Assembly (NCBI GenBank): GCA_013288075.1
Contig: JABDCQ010000002.1
Location: 32,447-96,446, forward strand
Direction: 5' to 3'
DNA: 64,000 nt
From: Chlamydiota bacterium
GTDB lineage: Bacteria > Chlamydiota > Chlamydiia > Chlamydiales > Rhabdochlamydiaceae
Shown: one piece after another, positions 32,181-40,749 of the stretch
How the letters are laid out: every line of letters starts with the position of its first letter
Numbering within the stretch: the stretch's first letter is position 1
Position numbers and translations under genes: made by a program
Notes under the pieces: model-generated
Told to the model about the DNA's origin: nothing
The model's input: the letters and a program-made list of their open reading frames with translations, nothing else
The model's database searches: none

Positions 32181-32320
32181 TCATTGATCACATAATCCCT
32201 ATTCTTGCAAAAGACTTAGGGGGTCTTTTTGAGCGTTTTCGGCAAGTAATTTAAACTTGAACTTGATATTTGTTCAAGCATGTTATTGCTTATCTTAAGT
32301 GGAATGAGGTGGTTGTGAAA

Positions 32321-32363
32321 GTGGGGCAAGCTGGACTTGAACCAGAGACCAGCGAGTTATGAG
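32321..32363 (-). repeat. 43-nt copy of the 3' half of tRNA(CAT), from the anticodon to the 3' end (candidate att repeat)
   Basis: GTGGGGCAAGCTGGACTTGAACCAGAGACCAGCGAGTTATGAG differs at only 2 positions from 39463-39505. Confidence 0.8.
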
Positions 32364-32552
32364 GGAGGGGGAACGCCAATTCACCCGATACCAACCAATC
32401 TAAATCAACACAAGTATAACGACTTAGGTAAGGAATGTCTATTGGTTTCTAATGGTTAATATCGGTTGAATTGGCAAGGCACTGGGCCCGTTTTTGCATC
32501 TTTACTGTTAAAAAACACCCAATAACGTCAACTGGGTTTTACAGAATGCATT

Positions 32553-33449
32553 TTAGATCTTATTCTTGTGATTTGCAAGCAATTCATCAATAATACGCCA
32601 ACATAGTGAAGATTCGGTGTTGTTTGGATTGGTAAAGCCAGCTGCCACCACCAAAGCCTTCCATAAAGTCCAGCCACGCGCACGAGCCCATGTGTCTTTA
32701 TCTAGACCAAGCATCTTTTGAAAAGTTTCTCTGCTTTTGCCGTGAAATAACGTCCAGCTGATTGCGAGGTCACATGCAGGATCACCAATAGCCAATTGTC
32801 CAAAATCGATCACAGCGCATAGCTTGCCTGTTTTTACTAGAAGATTGCCAGCACTGATATCACCATGCACCCATACTGGGGGATTTTTCCAAGAGGTGGA
32901 AAGAGCTGCTTCCCAAACAGCAGTAGCAGAAGATACGTCAATTTTATCTTTCAAAGAAGCGATTGCTTGACGTGTGTCAGCATCATAAATCGATAGTGAT
33001 CCACCTCTTTGGAAGCTATGTAATCCAGGTGCGGGTCCTCCGGTCGTATCGATTTTATGCAAAGCGACCAGAAAGTGAGCAAGACCGGCCGCAAATCCAT
33101 CCAGATCGCTTATGGGTGCTAAATTAGCGCTTTCTCCTTCAAGCCATCGGTAAATCGACCATTTCCAAGGATAACAATGCTCAGGCTTGCCCATTGCTAA
33201 GGGAATAGGAATAGAAAGGGGAAGATTTGGAGCTAATTTTGGCAACCACTTATGCTCCTTTTCTATCTGTAACTCATAATCAGCGGCACTTGGTAAACGG
33301 ACTGACATGTCTTTACCCAAATGAAAGGTTCGATTATCCCAGCCACTCATTGCTACAGACTGAATAGGTAGAGCTTTCCATTGGGGAAATTGAGAGTCAA
33401 TCAGACGACGTACAAGGGAAGCATCTATACTTGGGAGTTCTTTTTTCAT
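32553..33449 (-). CDS. Aminoglycoside/antibiotic phosphotransferase (APH) family kinase
   Basis: VHGDISAGNLLV...VIDFGQLAIGDPACDLA carries the Brenner and DFG-like motifs. An ATGA overlap joins it to the MarR gene stop. Confidence 0.75.
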   Translation of the reverse strand: MKKELPSIDASLVRRLIDSQFPQWKALPIQSVAMSGWDNRTFHLGKDMSVRLPSAADYELQIEKEHKWLPKLAPNLPLSIPIPLAMGKPEHCYPWKWSIYRWLEGESANLAPISDLDGFAAGLAHFLVALHKIDTTGGPAPGLHSFQRGGSLSIYDADTRQAIASLKDKIDVSSATAVWEAALSTSWKNPPVWVHGDISAGNLLVKTGKLCAVIDFGQLAIGDPACDLAISWTLFHGKSRETFQKMLGLDKDTWARARGWTLWKALVVAAGFTNPNNTESSLCWRIIDELLANHKNKI

Positions 33450-33925
33450 TGTTCTATCTCTGCTTGATCTTCCATGATTAGTTTCTGGAAGATACCAATC
33501 ATACACTCCATTTCTTCTGCTGTAAGCTTTTGAAAAAACTCTGCATCTTTTTTTTCGACAGCAGGCATTGTTCTTTTAAGGATAGCAGAGCCTTTTATAG
33601 TCAAAATAGGATTCTTAGCTCTTCCATCAAAAGATTTTTCTCGGGTGATCAGTTCTTTTTGTTCAAGTCCTCTTATGATTTGAGAAACAGTATTGGGATC
33701 AAGTCCGGCCATTTTACCAATAGCAGCTTGAGAAACTCGTTCTCCCTTTCGGGTTAGCCAGCCCAAAGTAGCAAGAATAACGAATTGGGGATGCGTGAGA
33801 CCCATTGATTTAAGCATCCATTCGATTGATCCACGCCATGCTGTGCTAACATGCCACAAAAGAAATCCTGGGCTGCGATCTGGCTTATCCTGAAGACTGA
33901 TCTCTTTAAAATTTACATTTTTCAT
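33446..33925 (-). CDS. MarR-family transcriptional regulator
   Basis: LTHPQFVILATLGWL...VSQAAIGKMAGLDPNTVSQIIRGLEQKELITR is a winged HTH. Confidence 0.8.
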   Translation of the reverse strand: MKNVNFKEISLQDKPDRSPGFLLWHVSTAWRGSIEWMLKSMGLTHPQFVILATLGWLTRKGERVSQAAIGKMAGLDPNTVSQIIRGLEQKELITREKSFDGRAKNPILTIKGSAILKRTMPAVEKKDAEFFQKLTAEEMECMIGIFQKLIMEDQAEIEQ

Positions 33926-34342
33926 CTAAATCTCCATTGCCTTGGCAATGATTTGGAAATCCTTTTGTGAAATTTCAAAACATCCTCGTCTGAAAGGGAA
34001 CCCCCATTTTTTCTTATCCTTTATAAAGGATAACTCCTCTAGAAGTTGTTGAATAGGAACATCATTTGATTGAATAAAAGAGACATCGCGACGCCAAGGA
34101 ACAAAGTTTTCACTCATAGCAAAAGGATAAGGGTTACTACCTTTGATTTTTCCTGTTGCTGTAAAGGATTGGCAGGGCTCTTTCTGCCCAAATTTGATAG
34201 TTGGGGAATAATAGACAATCCAATCACCTTCCTTCATTTGATTTAATGGACCGACCTTCCCATGGCAAACCTGAGCAAATCCACCTAATACTCCTCTTTG
34301 CACATGCTCTTTGGATGCGACTCCTATCCAGTACCGTGTCAT
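33926..34342 (-). CDS. EVE (PUA-like) domain protein
   Basis: MTRYWIGVASKEHVQRGVLGGFAQVCHGKVGPLNQMKEGDWIVYYSP matches the bacterial EVE-domain protein pattern as I recall it. Confidence 0.65.
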   Translation of the reverse strand: MTRYWIGVASKEHVQRGVLGGFAQVCHGKVGPLNQMKEGDWIVYYSPTIKFGQKEPCQSFTATGKIKGSNPYPFAMSENFVPWRRDVSFIQSNDVPIQQLLEELSFIKDKKKWGFPFRRGCFEISQKDFQIIAKAMEI

Positions 34343-34713
34343 TATTTTTCCTCGTGGAGTTTGTATACCCTAATTCTGTGTCCATCTGGGTCAAGAACAA
34401 CAAAGGTGCGTCCAAAGTCCATGTCTGTTGGTTTCTGAGCGACTGTCACATGCTTTTTGCCCCACTGTTCATACAAAGCATCGACATCTTCAGTCGGAAA
34501 GCATATTTCGAGCGCGCCAGCAGGTACATCTACCCGAGGCTCAGCTGTGTGTTTAGACCAAAGACCGAGCATCACGCCATTTTTGAGGGCGAACATTACA
34601 AATGTAGATGACTCTTCGATCGGTGTCATTCCAAAAATATCTTGATAAAAGAGAGCGCTCTTTTGCGGATTTGAGACAAAAAGAAGAACAAATCCTAAGC
34701 TTGGCGTAAACAT
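34342..34713 (-). CDS. VOC-family (glyoxalase/bleomycin-resistance-like) protein
   Basis: 123 aa with the pattern SALFYQDIFGM...FVVLDPDGHRIRVY. Its stop overlaps the EVE start by 1 nt. Confidence 0.7.
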   Translation of the reverse strand: MFTPSLGFVLLFVSNPQKSALFYQDIFGMTPIEESSTFVMFALKNGVMLGLWSKHTAEPRVDVPAGALEICFPTEDVDALYEQWGKKHVTVAQKPTDMDFGRTFVVLDPDGHRIRVYKLHEEK

Positions 34714-34785
34714 ATAATTTCTCCTAGTTAAAGCTATCAGGTTAGATTATACGTATGCGTATTAAACTCGTCTAGATGTTTTCTT

Positions 34786-35126
34786 TTAGATCAATGGCGA
34801 AGTGATGGCCGATTGTACTGGTAGTTGCCATTCGTTTGACTTAATCCGATAAAGCACATGCCGTTTTAATGGATGACCTTCTTGAAGCTTGGGATGATCA
34901 AAGTCATCAACTTCAGCGTGATGCATACCGATTTTTCCATCACATGTCGAGATCGCATATTTTGCACAGCAGTAAAAGAAACAATCTCTTCAAGGCGGAG
35001 TATATCGAATCCGTATCGCAAAGCTCCTCTTGCCCCTTCTGTAGCATAGCCCTTTCCCCAATGATTGAAAGCAAGCCTCCAACCAATTTCAACAGCAGGA
35101 GTGAATTCATTAAAAGGAGCGGAAAA
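34786..35126 (-). pseudogene. 5'-truncated GNAT (RimJ/RimL-like) acetyltransferase remnant
   Basis: My translation of the minus strand gives EIGWRLAFNHWGKGYATEGARGALRYGFDILRLEEIVSFTAVQNMRSRHVMEKIGMHH. An in-frame TGA lies just upstream, and there is no N-terminal half or start codon. Confidence 0.5.
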
Positions 35127-35140
35127 TCAGTCGTTCTGTC

Positions 35141-35680
35141 TTAACCGTCATGAGCAACCTCATATTTCAATTGCACTAAACCGCTTGGGTAAGATTGGGT
35201 AGAGATTAAGCGGCACTTATGTTCTCGATTCATGGTGCTAAAAAGAGGAATACCAGAGCCTAGGACCATAGCAATTACGGATATGGTGATATCGTCGACC
35301 AATCCAGCCTCCAAGAATTTAGATACAGTAATCCCTCCGTCAACCCATACACGTTTGATACCTTCGGAATGAAGCATAGAGGTAAGGTCAGCCAGTTGCC
35401 CCCGAAATAGCTCTGCTTCTTTCCTGGCATCATTTAATGTATTACTAAGAACGATGACTCTTTTGCCTTTATACGGCCACTCGTCAAAGTCAGAAACTAC
35501 TTCATAAGTATTTCTTCCAAGAATCAAAGCATCGATGCTATTGATGAAATTCTTAAAGCCATAATCTTCATTACCTGTATGGCCATACTGTAGCCAATCT
35601 AGATTCCCATCCTTACGAGCGATATAACCATCGATGCTGGTTGCAATATAAATAGAGATTTTTGGGCGCGTTTCATTCAT
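35141..35680 (-). CDS. Dihydrofolate-reductase-family protein (RibD C-terminal-like)
   Basis: ISIYIATSIDGYIARKDGNLDWL...LILGRNTYE pattern. Confidence 0.7.
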   Translation of the reverse strand: MNETRPKISIYIATSIDGYIARKDGNLDWLQYGHTGNEDYGFKNFINSIDALILGRNTYEVVSDFDEWPYKGKRVIVLSNTLNDARKEAELFRGQLADLTSMLHSEGIKRVWVDGGITVSKFLEAGLVDDITISVIAMVLGSGIPLFSTMNREHKCRLISTQSYPSGLVQLKYEVAHDG

Positions 35681-36135
35681 GTTTTAGTTGTTGTTTTGTT
35701 TGTTTTAGCCTTCATAGAGAATTTCCTTTATTTTATCCGTGAGTAATGCTCACTTTGGTTTAACGATTGTAATTATTATAAGGATCTGGAGTTGCGGCTT
35801 GTTCAATTCGCCTAGCAGCTTCGAAAACGTCGGCTATCCAATCGAGTATTTTGGGAATGTTTTTTACAACTTTCTTAATTTTTTTCCACATGGACTTACA
35901 TGGTTCTATTGTATCTTCTTGGAAACATCGAAAATCCAATCGTGTGTACTGAAAGAGACTGGATGCCCAAGCTCAAAAGAGGGAAGCAGTTCGGCAGACA
36001 TTTCATCGACGATAAGTTGTAGGCTATTCCTTATCTTTTCATAGAGTCTCTTTGCAGTTAATTGCTACAAAAAGTATCCATTTATAGGTTTATGCTCAAG
36101 AGATTAATTTTAAAAGAGACTTTGTTGTTAGTCCT

Positions 36136-37003
36136 CTATCTGATTTTCCAATCGTTGACGGGCATGTTTAATGGCTCTATGCAGCTTTTCCTGTAATACT
36201 TCCTTAGGGGCAGAGCGGTAAGATATTCGGCAACATGGATACCTGATTTGCCTAGCTCTAGAAGCTCAATGCGCTCTTGTTTTTTACCTGCACAGAGAAT
36301 TAGTCCCATGGGAGCTTCTTCCCCATGGAGGCGCTCGTATTTGTCAAGCCAGCGCAAGTAGAGCTCCATTTGGCCTTTGTGCTCGGGTTTAAAATCACCG
36401 AGCTTAATTTCAATAACGACAAGTCTTTTAAGGTCTCTATAAAAAAAGAGCAAATCAATGCGGAAATCTTCATCGTCAACCGTGATGCGTTTTTGGCGAG
36501 CAAGAAAACTAAAACCGGTACCAAACTCCAATAAAAACTGTTCGAGATCTCTCATAATAGCATCTTCAAGATCTTTTTCTATATATCGATCGTTGAGATT
36601 TAGAAATTCAAGTATATAAGGGTCGCGGAAGACAAGCTCTGGTGTTAAACGATCTTCATTGCGTAAAAGATCCACTTCAGCTCGAACCACTTCTTCTGGC
36701 TGTTTTGAAAGGGCTGTACGCTCATAGAGCATTGAATTAATTTTTTTACGCAAATCCCTTTCCATATTCCGCCACTAGTTGTTGCGATACAGTAGCAACG
36801 ATGTGTTGGCCGTATTGGGCTCGCCCTTCCTTAAGAAGTTCCCTGTGAATTCGATAGCCTATCTGCCAATAAAGCAAAGATAAGGTTGCATTTACAGTAG
36901 TAGCTACTGATTGACGAGCATCATTAATCATCTTTTTTAATTCGCTAAGAAACTCTTTAGAAGTTGTTGCTTTTACATTGCTGTCTTGGGTTTGGATGGT
37001 CAT
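36136..37003 (-). pseudogene. DUF1016/YhcG gene disrupted by an internal deletion and frameshift
   Basis: The N-terminal fragment (36746-37003) ends ...VAEYGKGFA-stop. The C-terminal fragment (36136-36765) starts in another frame at RDLRKKINSMLYERTALSK. The two ORFs overlap by 20 nt, and the central ~70 aa seen in the intact copy are missing. Confidence 0.65.
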
Positions 37004-37147
37004 ATAGAATTTCCTTGAAGTATACGTTCTGAAATATGTTTACTGAAGTTTTGGGTGATTTGGACATCGAGATGGGTGTAGCGTTCTAAGAGTTCTGTAA
37101 AGGTGTGCTGTTGCTTGTGCTGATCGAACTTGAATGTGCCAAGCTAT

Positions 37148-37480
37148 TTAAGAACTAAGCTGGTCTAATATCACATGCATTAGCAACACTAAGGCAAAAC
37201 AGAAAATAGGTATTACCCAACATAGGCGAACGACTTTGTAATAAGCCCTTGAATAACTGAAGCACATAAAAAAAAAGCTCAATGGCATTGCAAAAATGGG
37301 CAAGAGAGTAACGAAGCCAATCAATTTTTTCGTAAAAGAGGCATTGATTGAATTGACTCCTACAAATGGAGCAAAGAAGAAAAACAAAAATGGGAAAAGA
37401 AATAAATATGTAAAGCCCCAAACGATCATGCTAGATTTAGCTTTTTTCTGTGCAAGTGATGTTATATCTTCGGCAATCAT
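37148..37480 (-). CDS. Small polytopic membrane protein (paralogue of 37493-37837)
   Basis: 110 aa with 3-4 hydrophobic segments. It shares KAK..I.W...Y..L.P.L...P.S...SY..Y.K...W..P spacing with its neighbour. Confidence 0.5.
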   Translation of the reverse strand: MIAEDITSLAQKKAKSSMIVWGFTYLFLFPFLFFFFAPFVGVNSINASFTKKLIGFVTLLPIFAMPLSFFFMCFSYSRAYYKVVRLCWVIPIFCFALVLLMHVILDQLSS

Positions 37481-37492
37481 AATAAAGTTACG

Positions 37493-37837
37493 TTATAAAA
37501 ATTGAATTATAGGATCTACAGCCAATACAGCAATCAGAGTCAACCAAGGTACTGACCAGAAAAACAATGTTTTACTGTATTCTTTACACACATAGCTTGA
37601 CCACATAAGATCTATGCTTACAGGCAACGAAAGAGGGATTAATGAGATGGTAAAGATAATTGATAATCCCTTTGGGATTGATAAATGAGGATTATCAAAT
37701 ATCATAGCAGAAAGCAATGCAAAATAAGATAGAAGTGGCAAAAGCAGAACATAAATAATCGTCCAAATTACAGCACAAATCTTGGCTTTCCTTTTACGGT
37801 TTTGAATGGGTTCTGCCTTATTTTGACAGCTAGACAT
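37493..37837 (-). CDS. Small polytopic membrane protein (paralogue of 37148-37480)
   Basis: The ATG at 37837 overlaps the stop of the upstream 506-aa gene (ATGTCTAG). 3-4 hydrophobic segments. Confidence 0.5.
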   Translation of the reverse strand: MSSCQNKAEPIQNRKRKAKICAVIWTIIYVLLLPLLSYFALLSAMIFDNPHLSIPKGLSIIFTISLIPLSLPVSIDLMWSSYVCKEYSKTLFFWSVPWLTLIAVLAVDPIIQFL

Positions 37838-39350
37838 ACAGAAGCTCCTCTTCTTTTTCCTCAATCTTAGCTGCAAGTGAAGGGCGTACTGAAGGACTTC
37901 TATATTTTTCTATAAGCCGCTTAACTTCATTTTGATAGCATTCTCTGCAGAATTGATGCTCAACATAACAGTTTGGATCTGGATCTAATATTGTTATATT
38001 GCTAATTCTTTTCATGATGCTTTCATAGTGACTCATGCGTTGACTCATGAAACTCTCAAACACATGAGCGTCTACGGAATCAAGATAGAGTAATGCATCA
38101 TCCAAGGCCCATCTTTTAATGATGGCTCCTTGGCTTAAACCTTCTTTTATTCCAAGATATCTGTGTACGGCTAAAGATTGAAAATAGGGTGATCCCATAG
38201 ATGAAACTAGGTCGTTTTCGCTAGCAAAATTGTGGGAGTCGGGATGACAGCTATCAACCTCAAGAAATGATCCTCCTCCAAAAGTGAAAATGCGAATTTT
38301 TTGCCTTTCATTAATGTTTAATAGTTTTAAAGCATGCTCAGAAATAATTGCTCCTTGACTATGTGCAAATACGATAACTGGAGGTTGGGAATCTTCTTTG
38401 TTTGATAATGCAAGAAGATATCTTAAAAATTTAGCAGCCCAAGAAACAATAGGAGCATCAATTCCAATTTTTAAAGAAATGCATACTCCAACATCTTTTG
38501 CTCCAAGAATTAGAGAGTCATTTGGTAATGATAAAACCTCTTCTTCATTTGCATAGACAGAAATTAACTCTGCAGACTCTAATGCGCCTTCTCTCGAATT
38601 CAAAATGCCATTAATAAATCCCCAAATGCATTGACCTGATTTTTTCTTGCCAACGGTTCTCACTAGCGTTTCAATTTCTCCTTGAATTGGAGAAATTGCT
38701 TCTTCAGGGATTTGCACATTCCAAATACAGTGGCTAGGCCTGGAGCGTAAATGTTCAGAATCATTTTTGTGACGAACAATTACTGCATCTAGTCGATTCG
38801 TTTTCACCCATTCCATAGCCTCTTTCTTTGATAAGACGAGATCTGTTCCTATCAAGTAGGTGTCTTCCAAATCACCATTTTCTATCTTTGCGGTAATCTT
38901 CGGCAGAACGCATGTTTCTTCATTTCCAATCAATTCATATCCGCATGATTTTTCAATGACTTTTAGTAGTTTTTGAAGTTCTATATCCGTAAAGGATTTG
39001 AGTTTTTTTTCTATAGGCACAGGTATGCAACTACTTAACTTTGCAGCAAAAGCGTCGGTATTTTTGGGATGGTAATGTTCTGCTATTGCCTGGACAGTTG
39101 CATTGTAATACTTTTTGGAATGAAGCCAAGCTGAAAGTGCCTTATGACCTTGCTCTGGATAGGAAAAAATTGCAAAACCGTGACAAGAGCCTATTGAACC
39201 ATTGCTTCTTGCAAAATGACTGTGACTTTTTACTAATCCAGGATTATTTATCCGCCACGATAAATTTCCTCCTCTACGAATATGCTTATTGCCACATTTA
39301 TCAAAGTAGAGGATTGTTTTTTCATCTTGTGGGCATGCTATTCGATACAT
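37830..39350 (-). CDS. Multidomain protein with a C-terminal lipase/esterase-like alpha/beta-hydrolase domain
   Basis: VIVFAHSQGAIISEHA (GxSxG-type AHSQG) follows WGFINGILNS. The N-terminus has WRINNPG...GFAIFSYPEQGHKALSAWL. The middle segment VLSKKEAMEWVKTNRLDAVIVRHKNDSEHLRSRP is reminiscent of DUF3892. Confidence 0.6.
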   Translation of the reverse strand: MYRIACPQDEKTILYFDKCGNKHIRRGGNLSWRINNPGLVKSHSHFARSNGSIGSCHGFAIFSYPEQGHKALSAWLHSKKYYNATVQAIAEHYHPKNTDAFAAKLSSCIPVPIEKKLKSFTDIELQKLLKVIEKSCGYELIGNEETCVLPKITAKIENGDLEDTYLIGTDLVLSKKEAMEWVKTNRLDAVIVRHKNDSEHLRSRPSHCIWNVQIPEEAISPIQGEIETLVRTVGKKKSGQCIWGFINGILNSREGALESAELISVYANEEEVLSLPNDSLILGAKDVGVCISLKIGIDAPIVSWAAKFLRYLLALSNKEDSQPPVIVFAHSQGAIISEHALKLLNINERQKIRIFTFGGGSFLEVDSCHPDSHNFASENDLVSSMGSPYFQSLAVHRYLGIKEGLSQGAIIKRWALDDALLYLDSVDAHVFESFMSQRMSHYESIMKRISNITILDPDPNCYVEHQFCRECYQNEVKRLIEKYRSPSVRPSLAAKIEEKEEELLYV

Positions 39351-39462
39351 TTCTATTTCCTTTATTCGACCCGTTTTGGCAGTGTGTTTTTGGGAAGCAG
39401 ATCAAAACAATCAACCAACTTTTTTTATCTAAATACCTCGTATACAAGAACTTGGGAAAAAG

Positions 39463-39536
<74 letters not shown>

Positions 39537-39555: not shown

Positions 39556-40551
39556 TTATATATGATTGGGGGTGGAAAAGGCAAGGCCTTTTTTTAGGAG
39601 GGGGAGGGTGAAGGCGAGGAAGGTTGTAGTGTCGGGATGTTGGGAGGTGAGGATCGATTGGCGCAGTTCGAGGAGGGGGGGATTGGCCTTAAAGAGGAAG
39701 CCCATGAGTTGTTTGAGTTTGTTGACTTTGATTCGATCCGCAACTTCGGGGATAAGGCCTGCGGTGTAGGCATCGAGGTAGGTGGCGAGGTTTTCCCAAG
39801 AGGGTGTGTAAGAGGTGCCTGCAAAGTGCGCGCGGATTTCGTGGAAGATAAAGGGGTTGATGACGCTTCCTCTGCCTATCATGAGGGCGTCGCAGCGGGT
39901 GGTTTTTAGCATGTTTAGGGCGTCTTGTACATTGAGGATATCGCCATTGCCAACGACGGGGATGTGAAGGAGGGATTTGGCTTCTGCGATAAGGTCCCAG
40001 CGGGCGGGCGGGCCATAGCCATCGACTTTTGTGCGGGGGTGGAGGATGATGTAGCGAGCGCCGCTTTCCTCTGCTGCCAAAAGGTTTTCTTTAAAAAGAG
40101 AGATATCGTCAAAGCCCGAGCGCATTTTGATGGTTACGGGAACGGAGACGGAGGACACAAGGGCTTTTGCTACTTCGTAAAGGGAAGAGGGTTCCTTAAG
40201 GAGGCTTGAGCCGGCGCCTCTTCCTGTGACTGTATTTGAGGGACAGCCGCAGTTGAGGTTGATGTGGTGGGCTCCTCTTTTTTCAATTTCTTTGCCCATA
40301 GCAGCAATGGTTTCGGGCTCTGATCCCATAAGTTGAGCTGCAAGGGGAATGGGAGAGAGTTCATTGCTTTGGTAGGCAAGAGCAAGGCTTTCGACATGGG
40401 CGTTTTTAGGAACGCGCAGAAAGTCGGCGATGGCTTCATCAAAGCCTCCTACTGTAGCCATAGCTTTACGAAAGCAGCGGTCTCCGACTCCTTCCATAGG
40501 AGCTAGCATAAGGTAGGGGCAACCGTTTGGGTCTTGAGGAAGAATGTTCAT
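39556..40551 (-). CDS. dus: tRNA-dihydrouridine synthase
   Basis: MLAPMEGVGDRCFR, INLNCGCP and the Dus family pattern RSGFDD...HPRT. The gene is conspicuously richer in G+C than its surroundings. Confidence 0.8.
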   Translation of the reverse strand: MNILPQDPNGCPYLMLAPMEGVGDRCFRKAMATVGGFDEAIADFLRVPKNAHVESLALAYQSNELSPIPLAAQLMGSEPETIAAMGKEIEKRGAHHINLNCGCPSNTVTGRGAGSSLLKEPSSLYEVAKALVSSVSVPVTIKMRSGFDDISLFKENLLAAEESGARYIILHPRTKVDGYGPPARWDLIAEAKSLLHIPVVGNGDILNVQDALNMLKTTRCDALMIGRGSVINPFIFHEIRAHFAGTSYTPSWENLATYLDAYTAGLIPEVADRIKVNKLKQLMGFLFKANPPLLELRQSILTSQHPDTTTFLAFTLPLLKKGLAFSTPNHI

Positions 40552-40749
40552 GGCAAAGATTATATCAGAACAAAGAATCAAAAATAATTAAAATAATTTT
40601 TGCACATAATCTTTTCTTTGATTATAGGATGAAGAAAGAAGGTGATAATGCGTAAAAAGTTGGAAATGCTCCGTTTTGTACTTTTGTCTCTACTGAAAAA
40701 TTGTTCTTTTCTATCGACTTTCAAATTTTCTTTTCTTGTGCGCTCTATC

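Follow-up and report, generated by a model that had tools for sequence, protein, structure and literature searches.

A predicted lipase-type enzyme and its small polytopic membrane partners form a putative toxin-immunity module on tRNA-Met-associated islands of environmental Chlamydiota

RESULTS

A predicted enzyme gene is followed by two genes for small membrane proteins

We analyzed a 64,000-nucleotide (nt) stretch of DNA, hereafter the window, from a Chlamydiota bacterium of the family Rhabdochlamydiaceae (GenBank assembly GCA_013288075.1, contig JABDCQ010000002.1, positions 32,447 to 96,446), in which a gene for a 506-amino-acid (aa) protein with a lipase-like domain is followed by two genes for small membrane proteins. 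A first-pass annotation of this DNA had described the 506-aa open reading frame (ORF) and the two following genes of ~110 aa beside a tRNA gene, and all of them are present as described (Table 1). We refer to the three genes as the enzyme gene, A, and B. They are co-directional, and the tRNA-Met gene lies 111 nt upstream of the enzyme gene. The ATG of A (37837-37835) overlaps the TAG stop codon of the enzyme gene (37832-37830) by 8 nt (ATGTCTAG), an overlap that had been noticed before and that we confirmed from the sequence. A Shine-Dalgarno-like GAGGAG sequence stands 8 nt before this ATG, within the final codons of the enzyme gene, and only 12 nt separate the stop of A from the start of B. 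A and B share 27% identity (pairwise E value, 0.004), and each retrieves relatives of the other in phmmer searches, in agreement with the earlier proposal that they are paralogues; both have three hydrophobic segments, so that the polytopic character and common topology ascribed to them also hold. All three genes are under purifying selection. Pairwise ratios of nonsynonymous to synonymous substitution rates (dN/dS) against five orthologous loci at 75-85% protein identity were 0.11-0.28 for the enzyme gene, 0.11-0.32 for A, and 0.14-0.28 for B, and because the ratios are low in all three, we consider the genes real.

Table 1. Positions of the module, its domains, the surrounding island, and related loci (positions refer to the window unless another locus is named; TM, transmembrane segments)
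Feature	Position	Strand	Basis or remark
Enzyme gene, 506 aa, putative toxin	37830-39350	minus	ORF
WRxNNPG domain, aa 1-140	38931-39350	minus	Profile homology to phage/effector-linked proteins
DUF3892-like middle domain, about aa 145-205	38736-38918	minus	PF13031 in 20/25 members
Predicted alpha/beta-hydrolase (lipase or esterase type), aa 236-487	37890-38645	minus	Foldseek, triad
Ser331 codon, predicted nucleophile	38358-38360	minus	AGT in GCA CAT AGT CAA GGA = A-H-S-Q-G
A, small membrane protein, 114 aa, 3 TM, putative cognate immunity protein	37493-37837	minus	
B, small membrane protein, 110 aa, 3 TM, paralogue of A	37148-37480	minus	
tRNA-Met(CAT), island end	39462-39536	minus	ARAGORN; Rfam 71.7 bits
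Direct repeat copy 1, 46 nt	39459-39504	minus	tRNA-Met 3' half
Direct repeat copy 2, att-like, 46 nt, far island end	32318-32363	minus	96% identical
Island, 7.1 kb	32318-39504		Repeat spacing 7141 nt
YhcG/DUF1016 PDDEXK nuclease gene, split	36136-37003	minus	
Dus gene	39556-40581	minus	
RHS toxin/lipoprotein array	L060 384-3847		
Salmonella houtenae N-domain/DUF4431 locus (L081)	AGRM01000002.1 5540-8258		Pair SEHO0A_03176/SEHO0A_03177
Further N-domain/DUF4431 pair	L088 6001-7078		
Further N-domain/DUF4431 pair	L091 2462-5016		
Chlamydial stand-alone N+DUF3892 protein	L002 494-1174	minus	
Klebsiella phage SEA1f gp16 N-terminus	L082 4576-5100		

The C-terminal region of the enzyme is a predicted serine hydrolase

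We found 296 homologues of the enzyme in databases, all of them from metagenomes or metagenome-assembled genomes (MAGs) of environmental Chlamydiota, where they are recorded as "hypothetical" or "DUF3892 domain-containing protein." The 79 genomic loci of the family that we fetched (loci are designated by L and a number) come from MAGs of Parachlamydiaceae, Waddliaceae, Simkaniaceae, and Rhabdochlamydiaceae and from some others that are evidently mis-binned, and many genomes carry two to five or more copies of the enzyme gene. Several MAGs are labeled Verrucomicrobiae/Verrucomicrobiota, Gammaproteobacteria, Proteobacteria, Acidobacteria, or "Chlamydia trachomatis" (L009, L018, L019, L028, L035-L038, L047, L050, L052, and L076); in a Chlamydiota-specific family, these labels probably reflect mis-binning or mislabeling.

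None of the three window proteins matched a model in Pfam, NCBIfam, PHROGs, or PADLOC above threshold, and the families DUF3892 and DUF900 emerged only when individual members of the enzyme alignment (n = 25) were scanned. An AlphaFold2 model of the enzyme (predicted local distance difference test score, 78.9) has three regions. No signal peptide or hydrophobic N-terminus is present in the 506-aa sequence; the N-terminus is confidently modeled as a conserved beta-hairpin, which is common to the non-chlamydial homologues described below.

The first-pass annotation had seen a serine hydrolase in the C-terminal AHSQG motif, and both the predicted fold and the surroundings of the motif agree with it: the C-terminus is a predicted Ser-Asp-His alpha/beta-hydrolase. 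When the Protein Data Bank (PDB) was searched with this domain in Foldseek, the top 50 matches were all alpha/beta-hydrolases (lipases, esterases, and thioesterases; best E value, 2.7e-4; probability, 1.0), and the best match in a structure search of BFVD was a phage DUF676 protein (4.9e-6). The predicted triad comprises Ser331 (AHSQG), Asp380, and His465. In the model, the A-H-S331-Q-G-A elbow follows a strand at residues 325-330 (beta5) in the pattern of a nucleophile elbow, and Asp380 and His465 occupy their canonical positions after strands 373-377 (beta7) and 452-455 (beta8), respectively. The triad is strongly conserved among homologues, with Ser present in 78/78, Asp in 74/76, and His in 73/77. 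The Pfam hydrolase family most frequently matched across the enzyme family was DUF900 (PF05990), with weak matches in 14 of the 25 members (best E value, 8.8e-4) and none for the window protein at E ≤ 1. Families of the type VI lipase effectors (Tle; DUF2235, DUF3274/Tle3, and Lipase_3) yielded among the same members only one match to Tle3 (0.064) and one to Lipase_3 (0.094), and a single enzyme homologue matched DUF687 weakly (0.11). Sequence searches of the PDB with the single protein and with a profile gave only a marginal lipase-elbow match to 7x2p (E value, 0.09); a literature search found no paper that mentions 7X2P.

The N-terminal half combines a DUF3892-like segment with a domain found in phage and effector-linked proteins

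The middle of the enzyme had been called DUF3892-like, a resemblance that is clearer in its relatives than in the window protein itself. The Pfam model PF13031 matches 20 of the 25 members at E ≤ 1 (best E value, 2.7e-5), whereas the window protein reaches only 14.5 bits (E value, 0.052), below the gathering threshold of 22.3 bits. Two stand-alone relatives that consist of the N-terminal domain and DUF3892 score above this threshold (P0253, 31.8 bits; P0258, 25.7 bits). An RSRP motif at residues 202-205 is invariant. In antiviral conflict systems, DUF3892 has been suggested to act as the sensor of fusion proteins whose effectors are "deployed from within the cell" (bioRxiv 10.1101/2025.01.14.632903; 10.1101/2022.04.27.489752). 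A chlamydial stand-alone N+DUF3892 protein (226 aa), which keeps the Glu of an "EG" motif, is encoded 4 kb upstream of a module in the same MAG (L002); by eye, the ORFs adjoining it resemble AbiEi and DinD.

The first 140 residues form a domain that we call WRxNNPG, for which Pfam, NCBIfam, and PHROG hold no model. A Foldseek search of the PDB with the chlamydial N-terminal half gave no significant match (best E value, 0.089, to ribosomal protein chains), and we dropped the idea of a divergent soluble lytic transglycosylase (SLT) or lysozyme fold, which no PDB fold match supported. Structural matches in BFVD were found at root mean square deviations of 2.2-3.7 Å. Profile A3, built on the N-terminal half of the chlamydial proteins, matched 2094 representative proteins (representatives at 50% clustering), whose architectures include stand-alone N+DUF3892 proteins of ~220 aa, a Tox-PAAR-like fusion (5e-28), a LysM fusion, membrane-anchored forms, and, judged by eye, a fusion to a DUF4157-like leader. 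A tblastn search with a member that bridges the chlamydial and other sequences matched 694 phage records. We then limited the profile to the N-domain and built it from chlamydial sequences only (A3N). This profile scored the bridging proteins at 84-104 bits, an Acinetobacter phage tail protein at 56.8, a Salmonella type VI secretion system (T6SS)-locus protein at 48.7, and the N-terminus of a Kayfunavirus gp16 (gp16N) at 27.5. Since a chlamydial-only profile reaches phage and Salmonella proteins, the homology is direct and not merely transitive. The link of the WRINNPG pattern to phage and effector proteins, which the first-pass annotation had put forward, is thus borne out by profile homologues in phage, T6SS-locus, and PAAR-like proteins.

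The ejection protein gp16 of Kayfunavirus and related T7-like phages begins with this domain (MATRGIRNNNPGNIR...), which shares 37-42% identity with the bridging proteins (E values, 1e-10 to 1e-13); these gp16 proteins contain no SLT domain. In T7 itself, gp16 has a periplasm-acting lytic transglycosylase at the same position (PMC8954989). Klebsiella phage SEA1f offers an example of a gp16 that begins with a WRxNNPG-type domain and not with a T7-style SLT transglycosylase (L082), and many such phage records are nonetheless annotated "peptidoglycan transglycosylase" or "endolysin domain." The gp16 N-terminus of Kayfunavirus ("internal virion protein D"; RNNNPGNIR...GAFVIF...RWAPP) belongs to the same domain family as that of the chlamydial enzyme, but it heads an ejection protein of ~1300 aa. 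The chlamydial domain keeps W-R-x-N-N-P-G, I-G, A-x-F, G-x-x-A, and Y-x-P; unlike gp16, it lacks the PxENNT motif, and the conserved "xEG" Glu of all non-chlamydial relatives is replaced by Cys136 in 67/80 chlamydial sequences. These differences suggest that the chlamydial domain may bind rather than cleave.

Elsewhere, the domain occurs in a 697-aa tail-module protein of an Acinetobacter myophage, annotated as an endolysin, and in Salmonella enterica subsp. houtenae it heads a 533-aa LysM + TIGR02594 protein encoded in a T6SS-type locus beside tRNA-Phe. The gene order in Salmonella is Hcp, VgrG, DUF4431 (with a signal peptide), N-domain+LysM+TIGR02594, a signal-peptide protein, PAAR, and VgrG. 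DUF4431 stands upstream of the N-domain LysM gene in Salmonella and downstream of the stand-alone N+DUF3892 genes; literature searches on the NNPGN motif and on DUF4431 found nothing relevant. We infer that WRxNNPG is an envelope- or peptidoglycan-directed domain, with DUF4431 as its periplasmic immunity partner.

A small membrane protein or an alternative membrane or periplasmic partner follows most enzymes

Proteins of the A/B family are predicted to have three transmembrane (TM) segments, with the N-terminus inside and the C-terminus outside, based on hydropathy and charge profiles across the family. The charge pattern comprises a basic N-terminus, an acidic TM1-TM2 loop (FDNP), and a basic TM2-TM3 loop (SRYxxxYKK); the loops are very short, and the proteins end directly after TM3. 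Separated by a loop of ~10 residues, TM1 and TM2 together resemble the bilobed hydrophobic domain of inclusion membrane (Inc) proteins. The first-pass annotation could not assign these proteins to a known immunity family, and accordingly no consistent family match was found for the small-TM family in Pfam, NCBIfam, PHROG, or PADLOC. A large-database search with a small-TM profile returned 90 hits, mostly close relatives.

The survey of homologue neighborhoods that had been suggested earlier shows that the association of enzyme and small-TM gene is widespread. It was counted over the 74 loci with enough sequence downstream of the enzyme. In 60 of these, a profile search places the start of a small-TM gene between -51 and +91 nt from the enzyme stop; two more carry the gene on inspection by hand (L040 and L071), for a total of 62/74. 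An apparent fusion of the two genes in L071 was rejected, as a stop codon separates them. One locus has an ORF inserted between the enzyme and small-TM genes (L016). B-type paralogues are confined to the window's clade (L001-L005), and tandem small-TM genes are also found in L069 and L075.

In the exception clades, the gene next to the enzyme begins -37 to +11 nt from its stop. Alternative membrane or periplasmic partners occupy this same slot in 8 further loci: a CPBP/Rce1-like membrane protein in L066 (4e-8), in L073 (5e-3), and, judged solely from its length and number of TM segments, in L072; an N-anchored protein of 178 aa in L078 and L079; and a 444-aa signal-anchored protein in L013, L014, and L068. 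The type of partner tracks the enzyme clade. We looked for shuffling of domains between enzyme clades that have different partners and found none, as all three domains give the same nearest neighbors. Loss of the triad in enzymes without a small-TM partner was likewise sought and not found; the triad is intact in all of them.

Small membrane protein genes are repeatedly kept after loss of the enzyme

We also surveyed the association from the side of the small-TM genes. Four context look-ups and one metagenome scan yielded eleven distinct A-type loci. An intact enzyme gene precedes the small-TM gene in 5 (a contig end truncates two of these), and in one the enzyme gene is split by a frameshift (L096). 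The other five lack the enzyme (L095, L097, L098, L099, and L106). Three of them retain pieces of it: the final ~25 nt of the gene, including the Shine-Dalgarno-like sequence and ...EEELLYV*, in L095; about 100 nt of the 3' end in L097; and a fragment of aa 306-353, including AHSQG, that abuts A in L098. The breakpoints differ in all three. No enzyme remnant was found in L099 or L106. The orphan A and B genes of L095, L097, and L098 are intact, and their dN/dS is 0.16-0.57 against other loci. Small-TM genes have thus repeatedly been kept after the enzyme was lost. Orphan small-TM genes that are kept, together with enzymes that rarely lack a partner, are what one would expect of a toxin with its immunity genes, and retention of the small-TM genes without the enzyme argues against a role as holin, anchor, or chaperone.

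A related hydrolase domain forms the tip of an RHS toxin and matches DUF687

One copy of the module, in L060, has a gene for an RHS-repeat protein 3-4.6 kb upstream. This protein has the canonical ...DPVNYFDPDGRF motif (DPxG), followed by a hydrolase tip that is related to the enzyme domain (hmmsearch independent E value, 4e-13) and keeps the FINGI-N, HSGG, Asp, and H-x-F motifs. The RHS toxin gene overlaps at its stop with a gene whose 173-aa product bears a lipobox (LFGC). This lipoprotein gene is followed first by a truncated, orphan version of the toxin tip and then by another copy of itself. This array has the classical layout of polymorphic toxins, as described in PMC3482391, where polymorphic toxins, immunity genes, and alpha/beta-hydrolase toxin domains are also documented in Chlamydiae. 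The RHS array is separated from the module by an integrase fragment and a tRNA-Met-like sequence.

The orphan toxin tip of L060 matches the Pfam family DUF687 above threshold (29.4 bits, 4e-7). DUF687 proteins (CT326, CPn0066, and others) are specific to Chlamydiaceae and have been predicted to be Inc proteins (PMC3048545); they combine a catalytically dead hydrolase fold with a C-terminal bundle of six TM helices (PMC11878206). Like the module described here, DUF687 is specific to chlamydiae and joins an alpha/beta-hydrolase-like domain with membrane helices. DUF687 differs, however, in lacking the catalytic residues and in carrying the TM bundle in the same polypeptide, whereas the module has an intact triad and separate TM genes. 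The small-TM proteins showed no similarity to DUF687 by hmmscan at E ≤ 1.

The module lies in a mobile, conflict-rich part of the genome

The tRNA gene beside the module had been taken for an integration site, and the window contains the repeat expected from such a reading: the 46 nt of the tRNA-Met 3' half recur, 96% identical, at a spacing of 7141 nt, which delimits an island of 7.1 kb. The island contains the module, a split YhcG/DUF1016 nuclease gene, and RibD_C, glyoxalase, EVE, MarR, and APH genes; no integrase was found within it. Sequences of the tRNA-Met 3' half adjoin the module in many other loci. In L032, a two-gene module stands alone between identical 45-nt tRNA-Met repeats, and an integrase-like ORF follows the repeat in L001, L012, L015, and L063 (a fragment only in L063). 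Other neighborhoods of the module hold integrases, insertion sequence (IS) elements, HicAB, AbiE, and RHS genes. Between the window and its close orthologues of the module there is no flanking synteny, and no tRNA was found within 5 kb of the closest orthologues. The module therefore belongs to a mobile, conflict-rich part of the genome. No Pfam families for vgrG, hcp, or PAAR were found around the window gene or in the annotated neighborhoods L083-L087.

Several other features of the surroundings may be recorded. Glyoxalase, EVE, and MarR genes recur beside the module in L019, L023, and L040. The YhcG/DUF1016 PDDEXK nuclease gene is split into overlapping ORFs for DUF1016_N (85 aa) and YhcG_C (209 aa) and is probably a frameshifted pseudogene; since two independent Logan assemblies (L083 and L084) have the same split, it is not a sequencing error of the window. 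The sequencing runs SRR8433449 and SRR8434705 also contain this locus. The Dus gene just past the tRNA has ~53% G+C, compared with ~40% in its surroundings and ~36% in the module.

DISCUSSION

We propose that the module encodes a lipase-type toxin with small polytopic immunity proteins and is carried on tRNA-Met-targeting islands, a reading to which we assign a probability of roughly 0.6. The hydrolase domain would most likely hydrolyze membrane lipids as a phospholipase or esterase, which would make the enzyme a cell-envelope-directed toxin against other bacteria. Its WRxNNPG and DUF3892 half would probably target or bind the cell wall or the periplasmic compartment; a role at the envelope is suggested by the proteins that the domain family serves, namely, those of phage ejection, of phage tail modules, and of loci linked to T6SS, PAAR, and the extracellular contractile injection system (eCIS). 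A, as a 3-TM protein of the inner membrane, would neutralize the lipase domain at the membrane as the cognate immunity protein, and B would be a second, diverged immunity paralogue. The lipid substrate, the toxicity, the protection by A and B, and the choice of other bacteria as target are what we infer. Behind this reading stand the domain homologies, the conserved triad, the coupling of the genes, and the replacement of the small-TM gene by other membrane or periplasmic partners, as well as the orphan immunity pairs with toxin remnants, the RHS-tip relative, and the mobile-island context. The first-pass annotation had compared the locus to an enzyme-immunity cassette of a possibly undescribed kind, and the coupling, the alternative partners, the orphan asymmetry, and the RHS-tip relative favor that view.

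A number of observations weigh against this proposal. Delivery is its main gap, since the enzyme lacks a signal peptide and begins with a folded beta-hairpin, and since no secretion genes lie nearby; specifically, no T6SS, eCIS, or PAAR genes were found near the enzyme in the window or in the annotated loci. The N-domain has no match in Pfam or NCBIfam that would make it a known trafficking domain, and given Cys136 and the missing PxENNT motif, the chlamydial form may be non-catalytic. Matches of the hydrolase to Pfam lipase families are weak (best E value, 8.8e-4, below gathering thresholds), and the Foldseek E values are modest. No defense or immunity family matches A or B. To our knowledge, the known Tli immunity proteins to lipase effectors are periplasmic and not polytopic. 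A scan for sigma-70-like promoters or terminators around the operon detected none. Finally, 3 of the 74 loci have an enzyme with an intact triad but no evident partner: L021, which has no partner gene, and L054 and L055, in which an ABC transporter gene lies 52 nt away and is probably unrelated to the enzyme.

Toxin-plus-immunity systems are already known as a kind, and several of them resemble the module in part. T6SS lipase effectors of the families Tle1-Tle4 pair with Tli immunity proteins. Alpha/beta-hydrolase domains are also found in polymorphic toxins, as Tox-ABhydrolase-1/2/3 (PMC3482391). As in these systems, the module would use a GxSxG-type alpha/beta-hydrolase as a membrane-directed toxin, and as in Tle/Tli pairs, the immunity gene would lie directly downstream, translationally coupled, in variable and mobile loci. 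Unlike Tle/Tli pairs, the module has no vgrG, hcp, or PAAR gene nearby and no significant match to a Tle family in Pfam; its partner is a polytopic 3-TM protein and not a periplasmic lipoprotein, which accompanies only the RHS tip of L060; and its WRxNNPG and DUF3892 half is not a known trafficking domain. The immunity proteins of pore-forming colicins (E1/Ia type) are ~110-aa proteins with three TM segments in the inner membrane, encoded next to the toxin. A and B match them in size and predicted topology, but we detected no sequence similarity, and the toxin here would be an enzyme rather than a pore-former. Moreover, A and B run in the same direction as the toxin gene and are translationally coupled to it, unlike colicin immunity genes. 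Cinquedea, recently reported as a DUF900-type bactericidal phospholipase secreted by Haloferax (bioRxiv 10.64898/2026.06.10.730825), shares the DUF900-like alpha/beta-hydrolase with the enzyme and is used in Haloferax as an antibacterial membrane toxin. It differs in being archaeal and secreted and in being encoded by a single gene without an adjacent immunity gene or a WRxNNPG/DUF3892 half. In the libraries and papers that we searched, we found no description of the WRxNNPG+DUF3892+lipase architecture, of the small-TM family, or of the WRxNNPG domain and DUF4431, its likely partner.

The chief rival to an exported toxin is an intracellular addiction or abortive-infection module, in which the unexported lipase would attack the inner membrane of its own cell and the small-TM proteins would be antitoxins. 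The trigger would be phage or stress sensed through DUF3892, or loss of the island, and the orphan small-TM genes would be anti-addiction genes. Tight coupling and orphan antidotes fit this version equally well. It would also account for an enzyme without a signal peptide or secretion genes nearby, it agrees with the sensor role proposed for DUF3892 (bioRxiv 10.1101/2025.01.14.632903; 10.1101/2022.04.27.489752), and HicAB and AbiE systems are neighbors of the module on mobile islands. We nevertheless regard it as rather unlikely. PADLOC contains no defense family that matches, the relatives of the N-domain are linked to signal-peptide DUF4431 partners and injection machines, which suggests a site of action beyond the cytoplasm, and the lipoprotein partner of the RHS-tip hydrolase implies a target on the periplasmic side. 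The 178- and 444-aa partners, with their periplasmic bulk, would also better suit a toxin that faces the periplasm.

Alternatively, the enzyme could be a host-directed effector, delivered, for example, by a type III secretion system (T3SS), that acts on host or inclusion lipids, with the small-TM proteins as Inc-like anchors or restrainers; the module would then be an unfused counterpart of DUF687. The family is indeed specific to Chlamydiota and multi-copy, like many families of chlamydial effectors, and the link to DUF687 (4e-7 for the RHS-tip-type domain of L060; 0.11 for one enzyme homologue) leads to predicted Inc proteins (PMC3048545) with a hydrolase-like fold and a six-helix bundle (PMC11878206), to which the 3+3 TM segments of A and B would correspond. 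The small-TM proteins, however, have no similarity to DUF687 in the hmmscan comparison (E ≤ 1), the N-terminus of the enzyme is a folded beta-hairpin and not the disordered type of a type III secretion signal, and some partners are CPBP-like or large periplasmic proteins. In addition, orphan small-TM pairs persist after deletion of the enzyme, and the loci returned come from MAGs only, with no cultured host-associated species among them. On balance, we find a host-directed role improbable.

Two further explanations fit poorly. In a phage-derived lysis cassette, the enzyme would resemble an endolysin or LysB and be released by the small-TM proteins as holin and antiholin. The N-domain does occur in phage proteins annotated as endolysin or as internal virion protein with an endolysin domain, and an enzyme without a signal peptide, followed by two TM proteins of holin-like size, would suit such a cassette. 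Yet it is very improbable, as the annotated neighborhoods contain no phage structural or lysis genes, genomes carry two to five or more copies, some clades have CPBP-like, 178-aa, or 444-aa partners instead, and orphan small-TM pairs are under constraint without the enzyme. A and B also lack the charged C-terminal tail typical of holins; their charge lies at the N-terminus and in the TM2-TM3 loop, and their orientation is N-in/C-out. Least probable of all is a housekeeping envelope enzyme for lipid or peptidoglycan remodeling with a membrane subunit, which the strong purifying selection on all three genes and the conserved triad would fit but which is at odds with the missing flanking synteny, the att-like repeats, integrases, and IS elements around the module, its variable copy number, and the several independent deletions of the enzyme.

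Returning to the toxin-immunity proposal, we can extend it to a broader and considerably more tentative picture, which we think possible though doubtful as a whole. WRxNNPG would be an unrecognized envelope-breaching domain common to phage ejection proteins, myophage tail proteins, T6SS-, PAAR-, and DUF4157-linked proteins, and chlamydial proteins, with DUF4431 as its dedicated immunity protein. Environmental chlamydiae would have fused it to a lipase and added a new 3-TM immunity protein for use by these obligate intracellular bacteria against co-resident bacteria, and the DUF687 (CT326-type) membrane proteins of Chlamydiaceae might descend from such a free-standing module. Within this picture, WRxNNPG would probably be a peptidoglycan-cleaving or peptidoglycan-binding domain of neither the SLT nor the lysozyme fold. 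The N-domain is widespread, has no solved structure, and occurs where T7 gp16 has a transglycosylase; its characterization would bear on phage genome ejection and on T6SS effectors.

Members of the Chlamydiota live as obligate intracellular bacteria and are seldom regarded as combatants of other bacteria. If the proposed toxin-immunity function is correct, environmental chlamydiae exchange lipase toxins on tRNA-Met islands, and the DUF687 proteins of pathogenic Chlamydia would have a testable origin.

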